Shown here one piece after another: positions 1,809-64,000 of a DNA stretch of 64,000 nucleotides (positions within the stretch are counted from its first letter, which is position 1; each line of letters opens with the position of its first letter). The DNA comes from Patescibacteria group bacterium. Its GTDB lineage: Bacteria; Patescibacteriota; Patescibacteriia; Patescibacteriales; UBA12465. Location of the stretch: the NCBI GenBank assembly GCA_035269015.1, contig DATFJU010000031.1, positions 41,326-105,325 on the forward strand, in the 5' to 3' direction. Position numbers and translations under genes: made by a program. Under the pieces are notes generated by a model that saw only the letters and a list, made by a program, of their open reading frames with translations, had not been told where the DNA came from and did not search any database.

Positions 1809-2996
1809 CTATTTGTCTACTTTTGTTACAACACCAGCACCTACAGTTCTACCACCTTCACGAATAGCAAACTTTTGCTTTTCTTCTAAAGCTACAGGTG
1901 AAATTAACTTAATGTTAACATTCACAGTATCTCCAGGCATAACCATTTCAGTTCCTTCTGGTAATGTAATTTCACCAGTTACATCAGTAGTTCTAATGTA
2001 GAATTGTGGTTTATATCCTTTGAAAAATGGTTTGTGACGACCACCTTCTTCTTTACTTAGAATATAAGCTTCTGCTTCAAATTCAGTATGAGGAGTAACA
2101 CTACCTGGTTTAGCAAGTACTTGACCTCTTTCAACTTCTTCTTTTTTAACACCACGAAGCAAAATACCAGCATTATCACCAGCTTCTCCGCGATCTAGAG
2201 ATTTGTTAAACATCTCTACACCAGTAACAGTAGTTTTTTTAGTATCCATTAAACCAACCATTTCAATCTCATCACCTACATTAACAACACCTCTTTCAAT
2301 ACGACCAGTAACAACAGTACCACGTCCTTCAATTGAAAAGATGTCTTCAATAGGCATTAAGAAATCTTGATCAATATCTCTTTCAGGAGCTGGGATGTAA
2401 TCATCAAGAGCTTTTACAAGATCCATTATAGCATCTCCATCTTCTCCTTCAGAGTTTTCAAGAGCCTTTAAAGCACTACCGCGAATAATTGGAGTTTCAT
2501 CTCCAGGAAATTCATATTTATTAAGCAAATCACGAACTTCTTCTTCAACAAGATCAATTAATTCCTTGTCTTCAACCATGTCGCATTTGTTTAAAAATAC
2601 TACAATTCTTGGCACACCAACCTGACGAGCAAGTAAAATATGCTCTCTGGTTTGAGGCATGGGTCCGTCAGTAGCTGAAACTACTAAAATTGAACCATCC
2701 ATTTGAGCAGCACCTGTAATCATGTTTTTAACATAATCAGCGTGACCTGGACAGTCTACGTGAGCATAATGACGATTTTCTGATTCGTACTCAACGTGAG
2801 CTGTAGCAATAGTAATACCGCGAGCCTTTTCTTCAGGAGCGGCATCAATTTGACTTACATCCTTACTTGAAGCTGTTAAACCTTTAGCGGTTAAAGTCTT
2901 CAAAATAGCTGCAGTCAAGGTTGTTTTACCGTGGTCAACGTGGCCAATAGTTCCAACGTTAACATGCGGTTTTGATCTTTCAAATTTATCTGCCAT
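1809..2996 (-). CDS. tuf: elongation factor Tu
   Basis: 395 aa. [13 protein letters not shown] and DCPGHADY G-domain motifs; full-length colinear with EF-Tu. Confidence 0.97.
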
Positions 2997-3554: not shown

Positions 3555-5630
3555 TTAAGAATTCTTTTCCTTTATTTTCTCTAATATATTAGCAGGCACT
3601 TCAGCATAATGCAAGAATTCCATAGTATAATTAGCTCTTCCCTGACTCATAGATCTAATATCAGTAGCATAACCAAACATTTCAGAAAGTGGCACTTTAG
3701 CGTCAATAACTTTAGTGTTAGCTCTATCAACCATATCACCAATTTGACCACGTCTAGCATTTAAATCACCAATAATATTACCCATATATTCTTCTGAAGT
3801 TACCACCTCAACTTTCATCACTGGCTCAAGTAGTACAGGTTTAGCTTTTTGACAAGCATCTTTAAAAGCAAAAATACTAGCCATTTTAAAGGCCAACTCA
3901 GAAGAGTCAACATCATGATAAGAACCATCAAAAACAGCTACTTTTATATCAACCATAGGATAACCAGCTAAAATACCATTATTCATAGCTTCTTTAACAC
4001 CCTTCTCAATAGCTGGAATAAACTCCTGAGGAATTGAACCACCTTTAATTTCATTAACAAATTCAAAGCCAGCACCCTCTTCATTAGATTCAACGCGTAA
4101 GTAACAATGACCATACTGACCTTTACCACCTGATTGCTTAACATATTTATGCTCAGCCTCAGCTGTCTCTTTAATAGTTTCCCTATATGATACTTGTGGT
4201 TGACCCACATTGGCTTCTACATTAAATTCTCTTTTCATACGGTCAATAAGTACATCCAAGTGTAATTCTCCCATACCTGAGATAAGTGTTTGATTAGTTT
4301 CTTCATCAGTTTCAACTCTAAAAGTTGGATCTTCTTCTGCTAACTTAGATAAAGCTACACCCATTTTTTCTTGGTCAGCTTTAGTTTTTGGTTCCACTGC
4401 TATTTGAATAACAGGATCAGGAAAATTAATTGATTCTAAAAGCACTGGTGTATCTTCTGCACATAGAGTATTACCGGTAGTAGAGTCTTTTAAACCAACT
4501 ACAGCTGCAATATCTCCAGCATACAATTCTTTTACTTCTTCACGGCTATTAGCATGCATTCTTACTAATCTTCCAATTCTTTCTTTTTTACCAGTAGAAG
4601 AATTAAGAACATATGTTCCTGATTCTAAAACTCCTCTGTAGACACGAATAAAAGCTAATTTTCCCACATAAGGATCAGTAGCAATTTTAAAAGCTAAAGC
4701 AGCAAATGGTTCATCATCATTTGATTTTACTACCACTTCTTTCTCTTCATCTTTAGGATCATGACCTGTAATATCAACTGCCTCAACCGGATCAGGTAAA
4801 TACTTAATTACAGCATCTAAGCCCGGTTGAATACCAATATTTTTCAAAGCTGTACCACATAATACAGGATATAATTTATTATTTACTACTCCAATATGAG
4901 CAGCCTTTTCTAACTCATCAATACTAAGCTCTTCTCCATTTAAATATTTTTCCATAATAACTTCATCGTTTTCCACTATTTTTTCAATCATTTCTGCACG
5001 ATATTTTTCTACTTTTTCTTTCATATCTTCTGATATTTCAATTTCCTCAATATTTTCACCAAAATTACCAGTAAACTTCATAGCTTTTCTACTCATAAGG
5101 TCAATTATACCACTAAAGTCATCTTCAGCACCAATAGGTAATTGAAAAGCAACAGCATTAGGATTTAACCTTTCTCTAATAGAGTCAAGACTCATATAGA
5201 AATCAGCTCCTAACTTGTCCATCTTATTTACAAAACAAAGTCTAGGTACCTCATATTTATCAGCTTGTCTCCAAACAGTTTCAGACTGAGGCTCTACACC
5301 AGCAGAACCATCAAAAACAGCAATAGCTCCGTCAAGCACTCTTAAAGATCTTTCTACCTCAACGGTAAAGTCAACGTGACCAGGAGTATCAATAATATTA
5401 ATCTTATGATCTTTCCAATAACAAGTAGTAGCCGCAGAGGTAATAGTAATTCCTCTTTCTTTTTCTTGTTCCATCCAATCCATTTCGGATTCTCCACTAT
5501 GAGTTTCTCCAATTTTATGCTTTTTTCCAGTATAAAAAAGCACCCTTTCAGTGAAGGTGGTCTTTCCGGCATCAATGTGAGCCATAATACCAATATTTCT
5601 AATTTTTTCTAATGGGTATTCTCGAGGCAT
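3555..5630 (-). CDS. fusA: elongation factor G
   Basis: 691 aa. AHIDAGKTT and DTPGHVDF motifs; full five-domain EF-G architecture. Confidence 0.97.
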
Positions 5631-5689: not shown

Positions 5690-6157
5690 TTATCTAGCAA
5701 AGTGAGCAAAAGCCTTATTAGATTCAGCCATCTTATGTACGTTTTCTCTTTTTCTTACAGCCATACCCTCACCTTCAGAAGCTTCTAAAATTTCATTAGC
5801 TAATTTTTCAGCCATAGCCTTACCTTTCTTACTTTTAGTTGAATCAATTAACCACTTACAAGCTAAATAAAAACGTCTGTCCCCTTTTACTTGAAAAGGA
5901 ACCTGAAAATTAGCACCACCAACTCTACGCCCTCTAACTTCAACTAGTGGTGATATTTTTTTCATAGCTTTGTTGAAAATATGTCTTGGGTCTTGCTTAG
6001 TTTTTTCTTTAATAATATCAAAGGAATCATACACAATAGTTTGAGCCACTGATTTTTTACCATGACTCATGATGTAATTGATAAACTTAGCAATACTTTC
6101 ATCATTATATTTTAAATCCCCTTTTATTTCTTTTTTTTGAGCTTGTTTTCCTCTCAT
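5690..6157 (-). CDS. rpsG: 30S ribosomal protein S7
   Basis: 155 aa with uS7 signature regions (VEVRGRRVGGANFQVP...). Classic str operon order rpsL-rpsG-fusA. Confidence 0.95.
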   Translation of the reverse strand: MRGKQAQKKEIKGDLKYNDESIAKFINYIMSHGKKSVAQTIVYDSFDIIKEKTKQDPRHIFNKAMKKISPLVEVRGRRVGGANFQVPFQVKGDRRFYLACKWLIDSTKSKKGKAMAEKLANEILEASEGEGMAVRKRENVHKMAESNKAFAHFAR

Positions 6158-11576: not shown

Positions 11577-11588
11577 ATATGTATAATT

Positions 11589-12110
11589 TTAACGTTTACT
11601 CCATTGCGGTCTCTTTCTAGCTTTTCTAAGACCTGGTTTCTTTCTTTCTTTCTTTCTAGAATCTCTAGTTAACCAGCTTTGAACTTTAAAGACTTCTCTT
11701 AAACCTTCATCTAAACTAAGCAAGGCTCTAGCTACACCATGTCTAATTGCTTCAACTTGAGCTTGTACTCCTCCACCTTTTACTATTATAGAAATATCAA
11801 AATCTTTAAGACGATTAGCTTCTTTAAGAGGCTCTAAAGCAATGTTATGTTTATCTGCTGGAAAATATTCTTTAATCTTTTTGCCATTAACAAAAACTAA
11901 ACCTTTACCTTTTTCATGAAGTCTTACTTGAGCTACAGCTGTTTTTCTTCTCCCTACAGCTCTAGTATATTTACCAGAAAAATTAGCATCCTCTATTTTA
12001 TCTACTTTCTTTTCTACTTTCTTTTCTTCCTTTTTTTCTGCTTTTTCCTCAACTTTATCTGTCTTAGCTGTGCTTTTTTCTTTACTTGTTGTTTTACTTG
12101 CGCTAGGCAT
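11589..12110 (-). CDS. rpsI: 30S ribosomal protein S9 with ~45-aa Lys/Glu-rich N-terminal extension
   Basis: 173 aa. The uS9 core (GRRKTAVAQVRL...GGGVQAQVEAIRHGVARAL...RKKPGLRKARKRPQWSKR) is preceded by KEKSTAKTDKVEEKAEKKEEKKVEKKVDK. Confidence 0.9.
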   Translation of the reverse strand: MPSASKTTSKEKSTAKTDKVEEKAEKKEEKKVEKKVDKIEDANFSGKYTRAVGRRKTAVAQVRLHEKGKGLVFVNGKKIKEYFPADKHNIALEPLKEANRLKDFDISIIVKGGGVQAQVEAIRHGVARALLSLDEGLREVFKVQSWLTRDSRKKERKKPGLRKARKRPQWSKR

Positions 12111-45266: not shown

Positions 45267-45830
45267 TTAGAATTTAACTTCAATATTTTCTGCTTGAGCA
45301 GTTTCAATCTCAAAGTATTCATAAGGGGTAAAGCTTAAACCTTTAGCAATCATATTAGTAGGAAAAACTTGAATCTTAGTGTTAAATTGTCTGACATTAG
45401 AATTAAAGAATCTTCTAGCTGCCTGTATTTTATTCTCTGTATCAGATAGTTCTCTTTGTAGTTCCAGAAAATTAGTATTAGCTTTTAAATCAGGATAACT
45501 TTCTGATAGTGCAAAGATAGACTTTAAAGCTGAGGTCAATGAATTCTCTGCTTCAGCTTGTACTTTAGTATCACCTTTTTGCTGAGAATTAATAGCTTGA
45601 TTTCTCGCTTCAACTACACTATCTAGAGTTTCCCTTTCATGACTAGCATAACCTTTAACTGTTGAAACTAGGTTAGGAATAAGATCATAACGTCTTTTAA
45701 GCTGTACATCAATATCACTCCAAGCTTCATCAACTCTATTTTTTAACTTAATTAAAGAATTATATAAGGAGATAACGATAAGTCCTAGAAGGACTATAGC
45801 TCCAACAATAATCCAAATTGTTGTAGTCAT
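45267..45830 (-). CDS. lemA: LemA family protein
   Basis: 187 aa. N-terminal TM then LemA consensus (NSLIKLKNRVDEAWSDIDVQLKRRYDLIPNLV...). The lemA-htpX pairing is a common association. Confidence 0.8.
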   Translation of the reverse strand: MTTTIWIIVGAIVLLGLIVISLYNSLIKLKNRVDEAWSDIDVQLKRRYDLIPNLVSTVKGYASHERETLDSVVEARNQAINSQQKGDTKVQAEAENSLTSALKSIFALSESYPDLKANTNFLELQRELSDTENKIQAARRFFNSNVRQFNTKIQVFPTNMIAKGLSFTPYEYFEIETAQAENIEVKF

Positions 45831-57174: not shown

Positions 57175-58152
57175 TTAAAAACTTAGCACAAACTCCTCTA
57201 ATACGGCCCTAGGATTGAGATTAGAAGCTAAATACTTCCTAGCTCTGTTTATAGCTTTAATTATAGTCAAACTGTCAGCTTTAGCATTACTAAAATCATC
57301 TGCTAAATCAAGATAAGATACTAAATTAAACTGCTCATTTTCTATTAAAAGTAAATCTCTACTTACAGCTTCCCAAACATCTAAAAGATCATAAGCTAAA
57401 GTTCTTCCTTGGGCTCCATACAAACTCTTAGCATATTTAGCCTGTAGTTCTTTTAATCTGTAATTTTCATCATGAGAAATGAAATTAACAAACATACGAG
57501 CTTGTTCTAAATGCTTAGTATAATAATCTTTATCCTTTAAATACTTCAGAGCTAAAGCAGGTTTTCCCATAGACATGCTTGATATTTTCTTTGCTTCTTC
57601 TCTGTCAGCCTGATGATTTAAAAGATAATCATATATTAATTCCCTTTTCACTGCTTGAAAGTTAAGAATCTGTGAACGAGAAACAATAGTTTGAGGTAAA
57701 TCATCTATTTTCTCTGCCAGTAAAATAATCACCACCTTATTCTCTGGTTCTTCTAAGGTTTTTAGCAAAGCATTAGCTGCTTCTATACTCAATTTATGAG
57801 CATCCTTAATTATACCTACCTTGTATGAATTTAAAAAGGAACTTAAATTTAAGTTCTTAATTAACTCTCTAACCTGTTTAATACTAATATTTTTCTTATC
57901 TTCTTCCAACTCTAAAATCTGCAAATCTCCACTATTTTTAACTATTTTATTCCTATCTTCTTCATTGTCTTTAGAGTCAAAAATTAAATTAGAAGCAAAA
58001 GCCTTGGCTACTTGAAACTTACCTAAATCTCTTAAACCACTAAAAACATAGGTAGAAGATATCTTGTTGTTTAATAAAGCACTTTCTAAGAATTTAATCA
58101 CTGTTTCGTTACCAAGTTGAGGCCAATTATATTGTGTTTTTTCTACTGTCAT
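57175..58152 (-). CDS. holB: DNA polymerase III delta' subunit
   Basis: 325 aa. Degenerate P-loop (SGLRDLGKFQVAKAF) typical of delta', clamp-loader sensor region NALLKTLEEPENKVVIILLAE, and the SRSQ motif (QTIVSRSQIL). Confidence 0.75.
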   Translation of the reverse strand: MTVEKTQYNWPQLGNETVIKFLESALLNNKISSTYVFSGLRDLGKFQVAKAFASNLIFDSKDNEEDRNKIVKNSGDLQILELEEDKKNISIKQVRELIKNLNLSSFLNSYKVGIIKDAHKLSIEAANALLKTLEEPENKVVIILLAEKIDDLPQTIVSRSQILNFQAVKRELIYDYLLNHQADREEAKKISSMSMGKPALALKYLKDKDYYTKHLEQARMFVNFISHDENYRLKELQAKYAKSLYGAQGRTLAYDLLDVWEAVSRDLLLIENEQFNLVSYLDLADDFSNAKADSLTIIKAINRARKYLASNLNPRAVLEEFVLSF

Positions 58153-58367: not shown

Positions 58368-59657
58368 ATGAAAGGTAATTTTAAAAAAATAGCTGTACTT
58401 TTAGGAGACATAATAGTGCTTCACTCATCTTTAATGTTAACCTTAATTATTAGATATGGCGCAAATAACTTCTATGAGGTCTGGCTCAAACACTGGCCCA
58501 GCTTTGCTATTATCTTTTTTATCTGGATAATAGTATTTTATATATATAACCTATATAATTTAATCTTAGCAGCTGATAAGCTGAAATTTAATCAATTAGC
58601 ATTAAATGCAATCTTAACTTCAGCCCTACTATCAGTAGCTTTCTTTTATTTAAACCCTGCTACACAAATTACGCCTAAAACTAACTTAGCTCTATTTATC
58701 ATCATAACCATAGCTTTATTTATACTTTGGCGTAAGTTTTTTAATGCTTTATTACAAAACTATTTACCTAAAAACAATCTTCTTTTAATAGCTAAAAAGG
58801 ATAAGATAGAAAGCTTGGTTAACTATATTCAAACTAAAACACATCTAGGTTTTAATACAGCTCTAATTTTAGAAGAAACACTGAGTGGAGAAGAATTAAA
58901 AGACATAATCCAAACTAAAAGAATTCATACCATTGTTTTAGATCCCACCCATGCAAAAGCAGAAGCTTTTAGAAAACTTCTCTTTAAGTGCCTTCCCTAT
59001 AACCTCATCTTCACTGACCTTTCCAGCTTCTATGAAAAAATAACAGGAAAAGTCTCTATTGATACTATTACTCACACTTGGTTCTTAGAAAACTTTAATG
59101 AAGGAGAAAAAAAATACTTTAATCATATTAAAAGAATATATGACCTTATTATGGCTCTAATTATTTTCCTTATTACTTTACCACTATGGTTAATCATTGC
59201 TGTAATAATAATCTTAGATTCAGGACTACCTATTTTCTTCAAGCAAAAGAGATTAGGAAAAAATGGAGCAATGTTTCAGATTATTAAGTTTAGGACTATG
59301 AAAAATGAAGAAATTACTAAAGCTGGGTCATTTTTAAGAAAAACCCGCCTAGATGAACTACCACAGCTTCTAAACATCCTCCAAGGAAAAATGAGCTTTA
59401 TTGGTCCTAGACCAGAACAACCAAGTATTGTGGAAAAATTAAAAGAACAAATTCCCTTCTATCAAGAACGACTATTAATTAAACCTGGTCTTTCTGGTTG
59501 GGATCAAATATCAGAGAACTATCACAGCGCCAGTTACAAAGATAGTTTTGAAAAGCTCCAATATGACCTTTTTTACATCAAGAATCGTTCAATATATTTA
59601 GACTTCTCTATTACTCTAAAAACTATTTCTACTATACTAAGACGTAAGGGGAAATAA
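58368..59657 (+). CDS. polyprenyl glycosyl-phosphotransferase (bacterial sugar transferase, WbaP/EpsL-like), initiating enzyme for lipid-linked glycan synthesis
   Basis: 429 aa. N-terminal TM bundle and C-terminal PF02397-type domain (RIYDLIMALIIFL...PIFFKQKRLGKNG..F...KFRTM...DELPQLLNIL.G.MS.IGPRPE). Confidence 0.85.
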   Translation: MKGNFKKIAVLLGDIIVLHSSLMLTLIIRYGANNFYEVWLKHWPSFAIIFFIWIIVFYIYNLYNLILAADKLKFNQLALNAILTSALLSVAFFYLNPATQITPKTNLALFIIITIALFILWRKFFNALLQNYLPKNNLLLIAKKDKIESLVNYIQTKTHLGFNTALILEETLSGEELKDIIQTKRIHTIVLDPTHAKAEAFRKLLFKCLPYNLIFTDLSSFYEKITGKVSIDTITHTWFLENFNEGEKKYFNHIKRIYDLIMALIIFLITLPLWLIIAVIIILDSGLPIFFKQKRLGKNGAMFQIIKFRTMKNEEITKAGSFLRKTRLDELPQLLNILQGKMSFIGPRPEQPSIVEKLKEQIPFYQERLLIKPGLSGWDQISENYHSASYKDSFEKLQYDLFYIKNRSIYLDFSITLKTISTILRRKGK

Positions 59658-59735: not shown

Positions 59736-60009
59736 CTATAAGTTTTTTTCTTGTTTAACTAAGTTAATAAGAAAATCTTGCACTTTTTTGAAATCTATTT
59801 CTTTGCCTGGGCTAAATAAAATAGGCTCCATCTTTATATCTTCTTTACCATATATATCAAACAAAAAAATCACAGGCCTTTTTAGTACCCAAGTTTAAAA
59901 CATTGGTAATTATACGCCTCTTATCTCTTCCTACATCTAATTTCTCTATATCATATGACCATAGAAATGGCTTAAATTGCTTTAATTTTTCATTATTTTT
60001 TTCCTTCAT
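59736..60009 (-). pseudogene. small gene (~90 aa) interrupted by a frameshift at an A7/T7 homopolymer (around 59863-59870); pseudogene, slippage site or sequencing error
   Basis: Frame A reads MKEKNNEKLKQFKPFLWSYDIEKLDVGRDKRRIITNVLNLGTKKACDFFV*. The +1 frame continues FLFDIYGKEDIKMEPILFSPGKEIDFKKVQDFLINLVKQEKNL*. Together they form one plausible protein. Confidence 0.3.
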
Positions 60010-60126: not shown

Positions 60127-60684
60127 CTAAGTCTTTAAGTTATAATCTTTCTTGTGGCTGTAATCAGTTTCATACTTCTCTTTATCTTGACTTAAGTCTT
60201 CAATGTTTTGCCAGTCATTTACCCAATCTTTAATATTATACTCTAAAATACCCTCGTCTTTATCATTACAAATATATCTATTTAAACCAGCATTAATAAT
60301 CATCTTCTTACACATCAAACAAGGATAGGATTTAATTGGAATAAGTTCATCACCTTCTCCTCTTTTAAAGCCAAACATATACATATCACCGTTTAAAAGC
60401 GACACACCAGCCCTAGCAGCGTTAATAATGGCATTCATCTCCGCATGCACAGAGCGACACATTTCATAGCCTGTACCCGACTTCACGCCTCTTTTTCTGC
60501 GAATACAATAACCCAAATCCATACAATCTTGCACCTTCCTAGGCGCTCCCACATAACCAGTAGATATAATTTGATCGTCTTTAACAATCACAGCTCCAAA
60601 GGCAGCGCTTAAACAATTACTCTTTACACTCACAGCTTTAGCTATACCTAAATAGTAGCTGTCTTTGTCTATTCTTGTAGGCAT
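60127..60684 (-). CDS. dCMP deaminase (ComEB/CDA-fold deoxycytidylate deaminase)
   Basis: 185 aa. Zinc-binding HAEMNAI and PCLMCKKMI motifs in the correct spacing for dCMP deaminase. Confidence 0.8.
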   Translation of the reverse strand: MPTRIDKDSYYLGIAKAVSVKSNCLSAAFGAVIVKDDQIISTGYVGAPRKVQDCMDLGYCIRRKRGVKSGTGYEMCRSVHAEMNAIINAARAGVSLLNGDMYMFGFKRGEGDELIPIKSYPCLMCKKMIINAGLNRYICNDKDEGILEYNIKDWVNDWQNIEDLSQDKEKYETDYSHKKDYNLKT

Positions 60685-60830
60685 ATAAATAGTATTAATT
60701 ATTATATATTATCTAAGTATATTGTATTATTTGTAGTTAATTTTGGCAAATAAATAATTCAATAACAAAAAAGAGCTAAATTAGTAACTCATATTTAAGG
60801 TGTAATCTATTAATAGATAAAAATAATTCT

Positions 60831-61103
60831 TCAAAACAAATCAGAATGTGAACCAATTCTTAATAATAATATTAATAACTCCTTTTTATTTTTTTTATAG
60901 ATAAATAAAACATCTGATTTTAAATGACATTCATAACAACCTTTAAATTCTCCCACTAGTGAATGGTTATAATATTTTTTGGGCAATGGCTTTCCTTTTA
61001 TCAAAATATCTAAAAGATTTTCAAGTACCAAAAACAAATCTTTATCATGTTTAAAAGATTTTAAATCCTTTTTAAAGCGCTTAGAATATTTTAACGAAAA
61101 CAT
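60831..61103 (-). CDS. yafQ: type II toxin YafQ (RelE/ParE superfamily mRNA interferase)
   Basis: 90 aa. Aligns with E. coli YafQ (YSKRFKKDLK / YSGQYSKDVK; LVGEFKGCYECHLKSDVLFIYK / LQGSWKGYRDAHVEPDWILIYK; GSHSDLF / GTHAALF). Confidence 0.75.
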   Translation of the reverse strand: MFSLKYSKRFKKDLKSFKHDKDLFLVLENLLDILIKGKPLPKKYYNHSLVGEFKGCYECHLKSDVLFIYKKNKKELLILLLRIGSHSDLF

Positions 61104-61105
61104 AA

Positions 61106-61390
61106 TTACTTCTTTAACGCATCTTTAATAAGAGAAGAACCACTTTGAAAAGACTTAGAACTATTTTTAGCATCAATTATAGACTCTCTTAGCGTTTCAG
61201 CTTTTTTCAAGGTAAGCCCATTCTCACCTCTTATTTCAAAAGGGATGTTTTTAGTATTTATTATCTGCTTAAAAAACATTTTAACCGCTGAACTCATATC
61301 TAAACCTAGCTGATCTAATATAGCTTTAGTTTCTTTTTTTGTTTTGTGATCTATACGAATTTGCAATTGTTCACTATTTTTAGTCTTCAT
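61106..61390 (-). CDS. dinJ: DinJ/RelB-family antitoxin
   Basis: 94 aa. QLQIRIDHKTKKETKAILDQLGLDMSSAVKMFFKQII resembles the DinJ N-terminal RHH domain (VRARIDEDLKNQAADVLAGMGLTISDLVRITLTKV). It starts 2 nt upstream of yafQ. Confidence 0.7.
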   Translation of the reverse strand: MKTKNSEQLQIRIDHKTKKETKAILDQLGLDMSSAVKMFFKQIINTKNIPFEIRGENGLTLKKAETLRESIIDAKNSSKSFQSGSSLIKDALKK

Positions 61391-61502
61391 ATTATAATTA
61401 AAATTTAATAATGTTTATTATATAATAATATTGTATATCAAAATAACTAATATGTCAATACAAATAATACTTTAGCTTATTCTTCCAAAAGAAAGTTAAA
61501 AA

Positions 61503-62492
61503 TTAATTAGATATAAAATTAATAATTAATTTGATAATAATATCTTTCTGCTTAGGATCGCTTTCGGCCACTAAGAGTGCTAAGGCTACAAGCGCGTTAT
61601 CGCTAAACTTTTTCTCTCCTTTTTTGTTAAATAGATATTTATTACGTGCTAAAAAAAGTATAAATAGTAAAGAACCAATCCGCTTATTGCCATCAATAAA
61701 GGGATGGTTTTTAATAACAAAATAAACTAAATGAGAAGCTTTCTCTTCTATGCTTGGATATAATTCTTTTCCTCCAAAAGATTGATTAATATTGCCTAAA
61801 ATACTTTTTAAGGCTTCTCCCCTTTCCCTACCAAATAATTCACTTGCTTCTTTCTTTTTTATTAAACTATTTTTTAATCTTGATATCGCCTCGCGAGAAA
61901 CTTCGTAATTTAATACATTTCTTACTTTTGCAGTTTTACTAATTTGTAATTTATCTTCATCATACTTCTGAAGAGTTGCCCAGGTATTAGCATAATCTGT
62001 AATAACCCTTAAGAGTCCTTCACTTTCATCACTAGATAATCTTTTAGTTTCCACTGTTTTCTTTATTAATCCAACCGCTTCTTTGAATTCCTCTAATTGA
62101 CTGTCTTTTAATTCTTTTATCCGCTTTTGATTTAAAATATACCCACTAGTAATATAATTTTTCAATGTTTTTGTGGCCCATTTACGAAATTCAATAGCAA
62201 CTTTTGAATTTGTTCTATAGCCAACACTTAAAACCACGTCTAGAGAATAAAAAGTTACTGGTTTATCTGAATTTGCAATATGCATTTTTTGCATATTGCT
62301 TTTTTTATCAATCTCCCTATCTTTAAATATATTCTTAATATGACGAGAAATTACGGACTGATCCACTCCAAACAGTGAAACAATATTAGATTGTGTTGCC
62401 CAAATTGTTTCCTTATTGAAATCACCACGAAGCTCAAGCTTTCCTGTTTTTGTTTGATATATTACTGTTGGTTTATTATTAATATTTTTCAT
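61503..62492 (-). CDS. RhuM-family N-terminal domain fused to a C-terminal Fic/DOC domain (start placed at the internal Met; ORF extends to 62558)
   Basis: The N-terminus (TVIYQTKTGKLELRGDFNKETIWATQSNIVSLFGVDQSVISRHIKNIF) matches Virulence_RhuM-type proteins. The C-terminus carries the Fic motif HPFIDGNKRIGS (canonical HPFx[DE]GNGRxxR with GNK for GNG). Confidence 0.75.
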   Translation of the reverse strand: MKNINNKPTVIYQTKTGKLELRGDFNKETIWATQSNIVSLFGVDQSVISRHIKNIFKDREIDKKSNMQKMHIANSDKPVTFYSLDVVLSVGYRTNSKVAIEFRKWATKTLKNYITSGYILNQKRIKELKDSQLEEFKEAVGLIKKTVETKRLSSDESEGLLRVITDYANTWATLQKYDEDKLQISKTAKVRNVLNYEVSREAISRLKNSLIKKKEASELFGRERGEALKSILGNINQSFGGKELYPSIEEKASHLVYFVIKNHPFIDGNKRIGSLLFILFLARNKYLFNKKGEKKFSDNALVALALLVAESDPKQKDIIIKLIINFISN

Positions 62493-62586
62493 ATAAAGTA
62501 AGTATAACAAATAGGAGATAAAATTTCTATAAATTAACCTTAAAATATAAAAAAACAAGACATCTATTGTCTTGCTTTAAGTAATG

Positions 62587-62673
62587 CGGAAGGACCGGGA
62601 TTCGAACCCGGGGTACCATCTCTGGTACACTTGCACTCCAAGCAAGCGCCTTCGACCACTCGGCCACCCTTCC
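62587..62673 (-). tRNA. tRNA-Ser (anticodon GGA)
   Basis: Minus strand reads GGAAGGGTGGCCGAGTGGTCGAAGGCGCTTGCTTGGAGTGCAAGTGTACCAGAGATGGTACCCCGGGTTCGAATCCCGGTCCTTCCG. It has a 7-bp acceptor stem, an anticodon loop TTGGAGT (GGA), a long variable arm and a GTTCGAATC T-loop. No encoded CCA. Confidence 0.85.
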
Positions 62674-62780: not shown

Positions 62781-63551
62781 CTACTTAGACAAATGCTTCT
62801 CAATAATAGTTTTTAATCCTTCTATTTGCTCACCATTGGAATCAATAGACCCCTCCCATTCTCTAGCACCAATAACAAGCTCACTATCCACAAAAGTAGT
62901 CGGAGCACCAAAAACACCAAAGTCATTAGCTTCTTTGCTAACACTATTTACCTTAGCTAAATACTCATTAGTGTCTAAACAATTAGAAAACTGCTCTGTG
63001 TCCAAACCTAAATCTTTAGCTATAGTATACAAATCTTGTTCATATAAATTACTATTATTTAACATAGTAAATACCTCTTCTCTAAAATCTAAATACTTAT
63101 CTTGATCATTAGCACAATATAATGCCTGATTAGCTTCACTGCTTAAACCATTATTACTAACAGAAAAGGGCCTAAAAGCCAACACGACTTCATCACTATA
63201 ATCAGCTACAAGCTTATCTAAGCTCTCCTTATACTGAGCACTAAAGGTATTACTATAGTCTTCATAAACAACAATTTCTAAATCTGCATCTAAATTACCA
63301 AGATAAATGTCACTATCATCAATAGCTCTAAGACTTGGTGCTTTATAGCTTTGTGCTTTAATAATATTTTCTTGATTATTAGCTTTAAGTTCATCAAGAT
63401 TTTCTGTTTCCACATTACTAATGTTTTTACTATTATTACTACTATAGACTAAAAATACTATAACTAAGATAGCGATAATAAGTATAGAGATAACTAATAA
63501 TTTAGCTTGTCTTTTGTTTAATTTATTCATAATCTTAAGCAGATAAATCAA
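62781..63551 (-). CDS. DsbA-like thioredoxin-fold protein lacking the CxxC active site (membrane-anchored; start may be the internal Met at 63530)
   Basis: 256 aa. N-terminal TM. DsbA/Thioredoxin_4 pattern: VVYEDYSNTFSAQY where VEF.D..CPFC is expected, LYCANDQDKYLDFREEVF, GVFGAPTTFVDSELVIGA. Confidence 0.6.
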   Translation of the reverse strand: MIYLLKIMNKLNKRQAKLLVISILIIAILVIVFLVYSSNNSKNISNVETENLDELKANNQENIIKAQSYKAPSLRAIDDSDIYLGNLDADLEIVVYEDYSNTFSAQYKESLDKLVADYSDEVVLAFRPFSVSNNGLSSEANQALYCANDQDKYLDFREEVFTMLNNSNLYEQDLYTIAKDLGLDTEQFSNCLDTNEYLAKVNSVSKEANDFGVFGAPTTFVDSELVIGAREWEGSIDSNGEQIEGLKTIIEKHLSK

Positions 63552-64000
63552 GTTTTTTATTTTCTTGACTTAGACTGTTAAATAATATATTAGAAATATT
63601 TAATAATTGTTTTTCCTCAAAACGAGCAGACATTAACTGTACTCCAAAAGGTAAATTAGAAACAAATTTAGAAGGAATAGAAATTGAACAAATCCCAGCT
63701 AATGAAGGTGCACTAAGAAACTGATCTTCTAAGTACATATCTAAGGGCTTAGTTTTTTCACCTATCTTAAAAGCTGATGTTGGGGCGGTAGGGGCTAAGA
63801 TAGCATCAACTTTTTTAAAAGCAGCCTCAAACTCCCTGCTAATCATAGTTCTAAACTTCTGTGCTTTTACATAATAATCATCATAATAACCTGAACTCAA
63901 AACATATGTCCCTAACATAATTCTGCGCTTGGCCTCAGCACCAAAACCACGACCACGAGATTCTAAATAATGCTGTTTAATATTTTTAGCTTCCCTATAA
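63535..64000 (-). CDS. gatA: Glu-tRNA(Gln)/Asp-tRNA(Asn) amidotransferase subunit A, C-terminal part (gene continues beyond window end)
   Basis: The translation is open to the window edge: ...YREAKNIKQHYLESRGRGFGAEAKRRIMLGTYVLSSGYYDDYYVKAQKFRTMISREF...PSLAGICSISIP, the conserved GatA amidase C-terminus. The 127-aa ORF in the track starts at an internal Met. Confidence 0.85.
   Translation of the reverse strand, partial: YREAKNIKQHYLESRGRGFGAEAKRRIMLGTYVLSSGYYDDYYVKAQKFRTMISREFEAAFKKVDAILAPTAPTSAFKIGEKTKPLDMYLEDQFLSAPSLAGICSISIPSKFVSNLPFGVQLMSARFEEKQLLNISNILFNSLSQENKKLDLSA

Follow-up and report, generated by a model that had tools for sequence, protein, structure and literature searches.

The 64-kb stretch of Patescibacteria DNA considered here (contig DATFJU010000031.1, hereafter the window) carries, directly behind a gene for tRNA-Ser(GGA), a fusion protein of the RhuM/Fic-DOC type (RhuM/Doc) and, next to it, a relB/dinJ-yafQ toxin-antitoxin pair. 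Comparison with congeneric lineages indicates that the locus is, with high probability, an accessory and variable hotspot for defence and toxin-antitoxin genes of these families. The broader reading, in which this hotspot past tRNA-Ser(GGA) holds two independent modules acting by the mechanisms outlined below, is considered probable, while the specific kinase and abortive-infection mechanism of RhuM/Doc is proposed tentatively and falls somewhat short of an even chance. A sequence-only reading of the same DNA had regarded the genes as accessory toxins, in agreement with the distribution found here: dinJ-yafQ is present in one of the four lineages compared, RhuM/Doc is missing from two, and the neighbouring genes in the other lineages are recognised or candidate defence genes.

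A variable slot behind tRNA-Ser(GGA)

Read on the minus strand from position 64000 downwards, the window begins with the 3' part of gatA (to 63535) and a gene for a DsbA-like thioredoxin (62781-63530), which lead to tRNA-Ser(GGA) (62586-62673; ARAGORN), the conserved anchor of the slot. A terminator-like hairpin with a T-run lies directly after the tRNA (62552-62578). The order continues, on the same strand, with RhuM/Doc (61503-62492), relB/dinJ (61106-61390) and yafQ (60831-61103), after which comes a dCMP deaminase gene (60127-60684). Sixteen contigs of this population, drawn from several samples, show exactly the same arrangement.

Four congeneric lineages were compared, namely the population of the window, its sister lineage L001-L008, L021 and L013, and their core genes share 77-93% protein identity. 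The tRNA-Ser(GGA) gene is 100% identical in L001, and the same tRNA is found in L021 and L013. Between gatA and the stop codon of RhuM/Doc (61501), L001 and the window are collinear, and collinearity resumes at 60714, 30 nucleotides (nt) before the deaminase gene; the protein identities between the two are 91% for gatA, 78% for DsbA, 89.6% for RhuM/Doc and 96% for the deaminase. Between these break-points, the 786-bp dinJ-yafQ cassette of the window (60715-61500, minus strand) corresponds to 7.28 kb in L001. This block encodes a wHTH-PRTase (PsyrT/ShosT-like), PDC-S01 (AAA_14 + DUF4143; PDC stands for phage-defence candidate) and a methyltransferase, and it further holds AbiEi-like and AbiEii fragments, AbiLi and AbiLii. 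In L021, whose core genes are 77-90% identical to those of the window at the protein level, homology ends at 62542, which is 44 nt past the tRNA and just beyond the terminator, and returns after the deaminase. The interval contains PDC-S01, an HTH-Fic gene (PDC-S04/SoFic-like) and two open reading frames (ORFs) without assigned function, and RhuM/Doc, dinJ-yafQ and the deaminase are all missing from the L021 locus. Finally, L013 carries a Bro-N protein, assigned to PDC-S13 (E 1e-67), directly behind the tRNA. As orthologues are not found at the same locus in all relatives, the accessory status of the toxin genes stands. RhuM/Doc itself has stayed in place since the divergence of the window and L001 lineages. 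The L013 contig, CAYYPI010000024.1, is titled 'uncultured Gammaproteobacteria bacterium', yet it is syntenic with the window at ~81% nucleotide identity, and the label looks wrong.

Downstream of yafQ, the dCMP deaminase is 96% identical to its L001 counterpart, above both gatA and DsbA, and is missing at the L021 locus. The deaminase is itself a possible cargo gene of the variable region, and it displays only weak similarity to anti-phage dCTP deaminase models. Beyond it, two small ORFs of 50 and 45 aa (59736-60009, minus strand) remain from a DUF6922 + AbiEii pair. The pair is intact in L021 (14010-14901), where it encodes a 95-aa DUF6922 protein and a 215-aa AbiEii nucleotidyltransferase, while in the window the 50-aa DUF6922 ORF and the overlapping 45-aa ORF represent both ends of the pair, the middle ~605 bp having been lost. 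A third toxin-antitoxin-like module beside the islet has thus decayed. Within the sister lineage, the sequence past the deaminase holds epimerase genes in L001 (11633-13622) and a DUF6922 gene in L004 (11118-11411), so the variable region reaches beyond the deaminase. Further along the window follow a sugar transferase gene on the opposite strand to the toxin genes (58368-59657) and holB (57175-58152).

The mobility of the slot can also be approached through composition and the remains of integration. RhuM/Doc (GC z = -0.6; z = +0.1 for GC at third codon positions, GC3) and dinJ (GC z = -0.6, GC3 z = +0.8) are not marked as foreign, and yafQ has a low GC content (z = -2.8) with normal GC3. The dCMP deaminase is the only GC3 outlier (0.333 vs 0.198 +/- 0.040 across 50 window ORFs, z = +3.4). 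Composition and codon usage are therefore uninformative as a sign of foreign origin for RhuM/Doc and dinJ; their core-like values fit donors of similar AT-richness, since the best homologues lie in Patescibacteria. The sequence-only reading had reported neither an integrase nor an att duplication, and this was confirmed from the repeats of the 64-kb window and from the flanks of same-strain contigs. No 10-15-mer copy of the tRNA-Ser 3' end was found elsewhere in the window, and the gene tables of the same-strain contigs gave no integrase Pfam match within ~10 kb on either side. Likewise, no integrase was found in the gene tables of the L001 lineage or among the ORFs of the L021 island.

Among the rival explanations, the one that survives best is that the toxin genes act as addiction modules of a purely selfish kind, which stabilise the islet and bring the cell no benefit. 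This is a minority possibility, though one to be reckoned with, as DinJ-YafQ is a classical addiction-type pair and the decay of the neighbouring DUF6922/AbiEii pair is typical of toxin-antitoxin turnover. Yet selfish maintenance is compatible with a defence role, and defence-type cassettes fill the slot in every lineage compared. The suggestion of the sequence-only reading that the locus may be an ancient fixed island, which could then serve a housekeeping or regulatory role such as growth control, fares less well and is considered unlikely. While the core-like composition of RhuM/Doc and dinJ, the lack of an integrase or att repeat in the window, the uniform layout in the 16 contigs of the population and the presence of RhuM/Doc at the same position in the sister lineage (~90% identical) all agree with fixation, dinJ-yafQ is missing from the three other lineages and RhuM/Doc from two. 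In addition, collinearity breaks at gene boundaries, the genes alongside are candidates for defence, and homologues of RhuM/Doc occur on plasmids beside transposases. The content of the slot changes from one close relative to the next, and att-like repeats, described below, persist in the sister lineage.

The RhuM/Doc fusion protein

The first gene of the slot encodes a RhuM-family N-terminus joined to a Fic domain with the motif HPFIDGNKRIG, as had been recognised from the sequence alone. The length of 351 aa given there is replaced by 329 aa. The longer frame begins at a TTG (62558) that lies within the tRNA terminator, while the ATG at 62492 is the start used in homologues, in the gene models of ten same-strain contigs and in GenBank HKK54649.1, making the shorter protein the more likely product. 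A promoter-like site (TAGAAA-17-TATACT with TG, 62501-62529, minus strand) precedes this ATG, which lies ~8 nt past the -10 element and would leave the transcript near-leaderless. The exact proteins of the locus are already in GenBank, in a metagenome-assembled genome of 'Patescibacteria group bacterium': HKK54649.1 ('virulence protein RhuM/Fic/DOC family protein'), HKK54648.1 ('type II toxin-antitoxin system RelB/DinJ family antitoxin'), HKK54647.1 ('type II toxin-antitoxin system YafQ family toxin') and HKK54646.1 ('dCMP deaminase family protein'). As these names agree with the earlier gene identifications, the latter are correct and already on record.

The protein can be divided into an N-terminal domain (aa 1-125, 62118-62492), modelled as a Bro-N/KilA-N-like winged DNA-binding fold, a helical linker (aa 126-195, 61908-62117) and a Doc-type Fic domain (aa 196-329, 61506-61907), all on the minus strand. 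The N-terminal part matches Virulence_RhuM PF13310 with 73.3 bits (cut-off 33.7), covering only profile positions 15-133 of 252, and the C-terminal half of the RhuM profile is replaced by the Doc domain. The latter is recognised by Pfam Fic (53.7 bits, cut-off 24), by TIGR01550 DOC_P1 (46 bits, cut-off 38.65) and by PHROG phrog_577 'Doc-like toxin' (5.7e-20), and its top match among PDB sequences is 9vzc, a 'Death-on-curing family protein' (7e-6). The catalytic motif HPFIDGNKR lies at 61680-61706 (minus strand), with the His codon at 61706-61704. In an alignment with 57 homologues of 51-89% identity, H263, D267, G268, N269, K270 and R271 are invariant, giving the pattern HxFxDGNKR.

The Lys at the place of the second Gly, according to Castro-Roa et al. 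2013 and Cruz et al. 2014, reportedly sets the Doc kinase apart from AMPylating Fic proteins. These Doc conclusions are cited in PMC5033356, PMC9207808 and PMC6529018, and Doc is described as an EF-Tu kinase that is inhibited by Phd (PMC9207808, PMC10728895). Because 'GNK' is the Doc signature and the TIGR01550 score exceeds its cut-off, kinase activity is likelier than AMPylation or phosphocholination. The sequence-only reading was thus right that the GNK variant matters, but the AMPylation or phosphocholination that it ascribed to the domain is less likely than kinase activity (TIGR01550, 46 vs 38.65), and the C-terminal domain is more likely a Doc-type kinase than an AMPylase or phosphocholine transferase. 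The organism's own EF-Tu (395 aa; tuf, 1809-2996, minus strand) retains the Thr context that Doc kinases phosphorylate.

The likeness to the Phd-Doc systems of phage P1 and Salmonella extends from the shared Fic-fold catalytic motif with Lys, HxFxD[AG]NKR, to the match with TIGR01550, the structural similarity described below (TM-score 0.66-0.68) and a genome that contains the EF-Tu target Thr context. Yet only ~20% of the sequence is identical to P1 Doc, and the RhuM/Doc protein has no Phd gene, its Doc domain instead being fused behind a Bro-N-like and helical region of ~195 aa. Upstream of RhuM/Doc no Phd antitoxin gene was found, as this position is taken by the tRNA and no small ORF with a Phd match is present.

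A different chemistry would follow if the C-terminal domain were a class II Fic AMPylase or phosphocholine transferase, held in check by an intramolecular alpha-inh helix containing SDESEG. The significant Pfam Fic match and a weak match to the SoFic AMPylase model (E 0.0027, far under its cut-off) point in this direction, as does the agreement of SDESEG (aa 154-159), which lies N-terminal to the Fic domain, with the pattern [ST]xxxE[GN]. However, an invariant Lys stands where AMPylases have the second Gly, and it is the Doc model that is matched over its cut-off. An alpha-inh motif had been raised by the sequence-only reading as worth looking for, in cis or in a neighbouring ORF. It is found in cis as SDESEG, yet the pattern recurs at that column in only 3 of the 57 homologues, which does not exceed chance, and it was rejected as a class II Fic cis alpha-inh helix. 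The residues conserved in the linker are L152, E156, G159, Y167 and D178, following the pattern L152-x3-E156-x2-G159-LL, and the conserved Glu (E156) has xxG after it and not the G/N of the alpha-inh motif. Inspection of DinJ by eye revealed no alpha-inh motif. An AMPylase or phosphocholine transferase is hence an improbable identity for the domain.

Structural models agree with a Doc-type catalytic domain. AlphaFold2 modelled the full-length protein with a predicted local distance difference test (pLDDT) score of 72 and a predicted TM-score (pTM) of 0.52, with the linker at pLDDT 44-61. In Foldseek comparisons, the C-terminal domain superimposes on P1 Doc (3k33_A, 3dd7_A) with a TM-score of 0.66-0.68 and a root-mean-square deviation of 3.0-3.2, while the full-length model gave poor global matches, the interdomain packing being uncertain. 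A separate AlphaFold2 model of residues 1-125 reached pLDDT 78. Against the PDB, this N-domain displayed only weak winged-helix matches (E>=0.03), and a profile search of PDB sequences with the N-domain gave no match. Against the predicted viral structures of BFVD, it gave 14 matches with E<=1e-3 and TM-scores of 0.45-0.62, consisting of Bro-N, KilA-N, Ant-antirepressor and 'repressor domain' proteins. On the basis of these models, the RhuM/Doc N-terminus is best described as a Bro-N/KilA-N-like nucleic-acid-binding domain.

The full-length architecture is an established one. The PADLOC model PDLC04965 of PDC-S23 is matched with E 1.4e-119, query positions 6-328 aligning with profile positions 4-324 of 327. 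The N-domain alone matches many PDC-S05 models with other C-termini, and PADLOC treats PDC-S23 as a single-gene candidate. The PDC systems comprise 145 phage-defence candidates identified by 'guilt by embedding' in restriction-modification (R-M), BREX and DISARM loci; no mention of PDC-S23 by name was found in the literature. RhuM-DOC fusions and their R-M/PrrC defence neighbourhoods were described by Anantharaman et al. 2013 (PMC3710099), and RhuM genes are enriched beside phase-variable type I R-M loci. At least 7,947 homologues of RhuM/Doc, from many phyla and at 40-60% identity, were retrieved in a protein search. Full-length copies are also found on 16 proteobacterial plasmids, and in both plasmids inspected the gene stands solo beside transposases. 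The window gene, the RhuM/Fic/DOC proteins, PDC-S23 and the 2013 fusions share the same full-length architecture, with thousands of homologues at 40-90% identity, and a context of the defence-island type. Unlike those fusions, however, the window gene is not inside a type I R-M, BREX or PrrC locus but directly behind a tRNA gene in a genome of the candidate phyla radiation (CPR).

The DinJ-YafQ pair

The second module consists of the relB/dinJ antitoxin (94 aa) and the yafQ toxin of the RelE/ParE superfamily (90 aa). The antitoxin gene comes first, with a spacing of exactly 2 nt before yafQ, as the sequence-only reading had reported, and the distance from the Fic stop codon to the dinJ start is 112 nt, where 110 bp had been given. 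In profile searches, the yafQ product reached 95 bits with YafQ_toxin PF15738 (cut-off 30) and 72 bits with RelE_StbE TIGR02385 (cut-off 27.9), and it stayed under the cut-off of the narrow YafQ model TIGR00053 (67 bits, cut-off 87.25). The antitoxin matched RelB_DinJ TIGR02384 (74.9 bits, cut-off 45.65) and PF04221 (56.7 bits), its score with the E. coli DinJ equivalog NF008412 being 26, under the cut-off of 96. Among solved structures, the toxin best matches H. pylori HP0892 (4nrn, 2otr; E 5e-15) and E. coli YafQ (4ml2, 4q2u; E 5e-9), and the antitoxin DinJ 9lew_A (4e-9) and 4q2u_A (1e-4). All five of the E. coli YafQ residues H50, H63, D67, H87 and F91 are identical in the window YafQ by BLASTP with an E. 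coli sequence whose numbering agrees with the published residues. The catalytic pattern is likewise kept in the alignment of the window YafQ with HP0892.

By these profile matches, dinJ-yafQ is a canonical RelB/DinJ-YafQ type II toxin-antitoxin operon. It resembles E. coli DinJ-YafQ and H. pylori HP0892/HP0894 in its antitoxin-first order with a tiny spacer and in its RelB/DinJ-family antitoxin, and it keeps all YafQ catalytic positions. Yet the identity to E. coli YafQ is only 37%, and the equivalog models TIGR00053 and NF008412 are not reached.

A promoter-like site before dinJ (TTGACA-17-TACAAT, 61430-61458, minus strand) is the top sigma-70-like site of the region, with 11 of 12 matches. 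It is bracketed by the inverted repeat TTGTAT/ATACAA (61463-61458 and 61436-61431), which the sequence-only reading had noted as possibly operator-like. The repeat is present, but many equivalent ones occur in the AT-rich spacer, where five 6-nt inverted repeats were observed against 6.9 expected and 98.7% of shuffles contained at least one. As a signal, the repeat is thus within chance. A putative operator role for a 6-nt repeat is plausible for a type II toxin-antitoxin system.

It could be asked whether RhuM/Doc and DinJ-YafQ belong together in a single three-gene system, with DinJ, for instance, also neutralising or regulating the Doc domain. The genes are on the same strand, 112 nt apart, with no terminator predicted between them. 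However, unrelated genes follow RhuM/Doc in the sister lineage, homologues are solo on plasmids, dinJ has the top promoter match of the region, and PADLOC models RhuM/Doc as a single-gene candidate, making a joint system very improbable. RhuM/Doc and dinJ-yafQ are accordingly independent modules, given that the former is followed by other genes in L001 and occurs solo on plasmids and that dinJ has its own predicted strong promoter.

Proposed mechanism and its weighing

By analogy with P1 Doc, the Doc domain of the fusion protein would phosphorylate the conserved Thr of EF-Tu and thereby stop translation. As the gene is solo and lacks a Phd-like partner, the Bro-N-like N-domain and the conserved helical linker may hold the Doc domain inactive in cis. 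Phage DNA or a phage-encoded protein would be a plausible trigger for releasing the Doc domain, leading to an abortive-infection-like response. For the second module, YafQ would cleave ribosome-bound mRNA once the DinJ antitoxin is lost. The kinase activity, the EF-Tu target, the cis-inhibition and the anti-phage role of RhuM/Doc are all inferred, whereas the identities of the genes, the intact catalytic motifs of the two toxins, the independence of both modules and the variability of the slot are shown.

Several points weigh against the reading of a variable hotspot with two modules acting in this way. RhuM/Doc is ~90% identical to its L001 counterpart at the protein level, like gatA, so it has been resident for some time, its composition is core-like, and the window has neither an integrase nor an att repeat. 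By the account of the PADLOC authors, the PDC systems are candidates, so that the anti-phage role of RhuM/Doc is a predicted one. The interdomain geometry of the AlphaFold2 model is unreliable (pTM 0.52), leaving cis-inhibition a pure inference. Moreover, BifA, the only studied RhuM+Fic protein found, is reported as a virulence factor, direct kinase activity not being demonstrated.

BifA of Streptococcus equi subsp. zooepidemicus, which reportedly acts on moesin in human endothelial cells (PMC6529018), shares its RhuM+Fic architecture with the window protein. That RhuM/Doc could, by analogy with BifA and its action on host cells, be an effector against another cell, namely the host bacterium of a presumably episymbiotic organism, is highly doubtful, as the window shows no evident signal peptide or context of a secretion system, members of the family occur across free-living phyla and plasmids, and the gene sits among intracellular defence-type genes.

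Repeats at the cassette junctions

In L001, a stretch of ~100 bp is repeated at ~80% identity 3.6 kb downstream, before the methyltransferase gene. It takes in the final 5-7 nt of the tRNA together with the terminator hairpin, a promoter-like segment and ATGAA. In addition, a junction motif, GTT(C/T)GAAT..GGTTGAT(TA/CG)CTC(T/C)CCGCA followed by a hairpin (in short form GTTYGAAT..GGTTGATYRCTCYCCGCA), is situated 12-40 nt past gene stop codons, in L001 those of the successive single-gene cassettes RhuM/Doc, PRTase and PDC-S01 (3661-3674, 4797-4810, 6098-6111) and in L021 that of PDC-S01 (11581-11594). The motif can be aligned to the T-loop and the acceptor 3' end of tRNA-Ser, and the three copies in L001 are degenerate. 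L021 corresponds to L001 minus the RhuM/Doc and PRTase cassettes. In the window, the motif was not found with <=3 mismatches, and <=5 mismatches gave one chance match at 45595. A scan of viral contigs for a phage or other element carrying the motif gave three matches, which lie in GC-rich, unrelated contigs without a tRNA and are attributable to chance. The repeats in L001 and L021 are what serial integration at the tRNA 3' end would leave, although no recombinase was encountered.

The promoter-like segment, TTTATAGAAATTTTATCT...TTGTTATA, lies just past the tRNA terminator, is ~50 nt long and is conserved among lineages (window 62493-62541; L001 2575-2632 and 6150-6208; L013 ~5445-5483). It precedes differing first genes, namely RhuM/Doc, the methyltransferase in L001 and the Bro-N protein in L013.

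Like tRNA-linked genomic (defence) islands that arise by serial integration, the slot is on the 3' side of a tRNA gene, its cargo varies between close relatives, and degenerate direct repeats resembling the tRNA 3' end mark the cassette junctions, here in the sister lineage. The arrays differ from such islands in having no integrase in any array and no repeats in the window itself, and each of their cassettes consists of one gene of 1-1.3 kb, placed behind a promoter-like segment that they share. It could be speculated that the locus is an integron-like cassette platform behind tRNA-Ser(GGA) without an integrase of its own, with RhuM/Doc as an abortive-infection kinase complete in itself, its Bro-N-like domain sensing the nucleic acid of a phage. 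The promoter past the terminator could then act as a 'landing pad' behind which single-gene defence cassettes (RhuM/Doc, wHTH-PRTase, PDC-S01, Bro-N) are stacked, and the tRNA-3'-end-like motif with the hairpin closing each cassette could be a recombination site. This possibility is a long shot, and two independent modules in a variable accessory hotspot remain the preferred reading.

Significance

The modules themselves are ordinary and already catalogued, and the locus adds context to them and no new principle. It documents that the ultra-small genomes of CPR/Patescibacteria keep, beside a tRNA gene, a hotspot of defence and toxin genes that is prone to turnover, and it offers a clean natural example of a predicted Doc-type kinase domain that lacks Phd and is joined to a Bro-N-like domain. 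The repeats at the cassette junctions of the sister lineages are the only element that might lead to something new.

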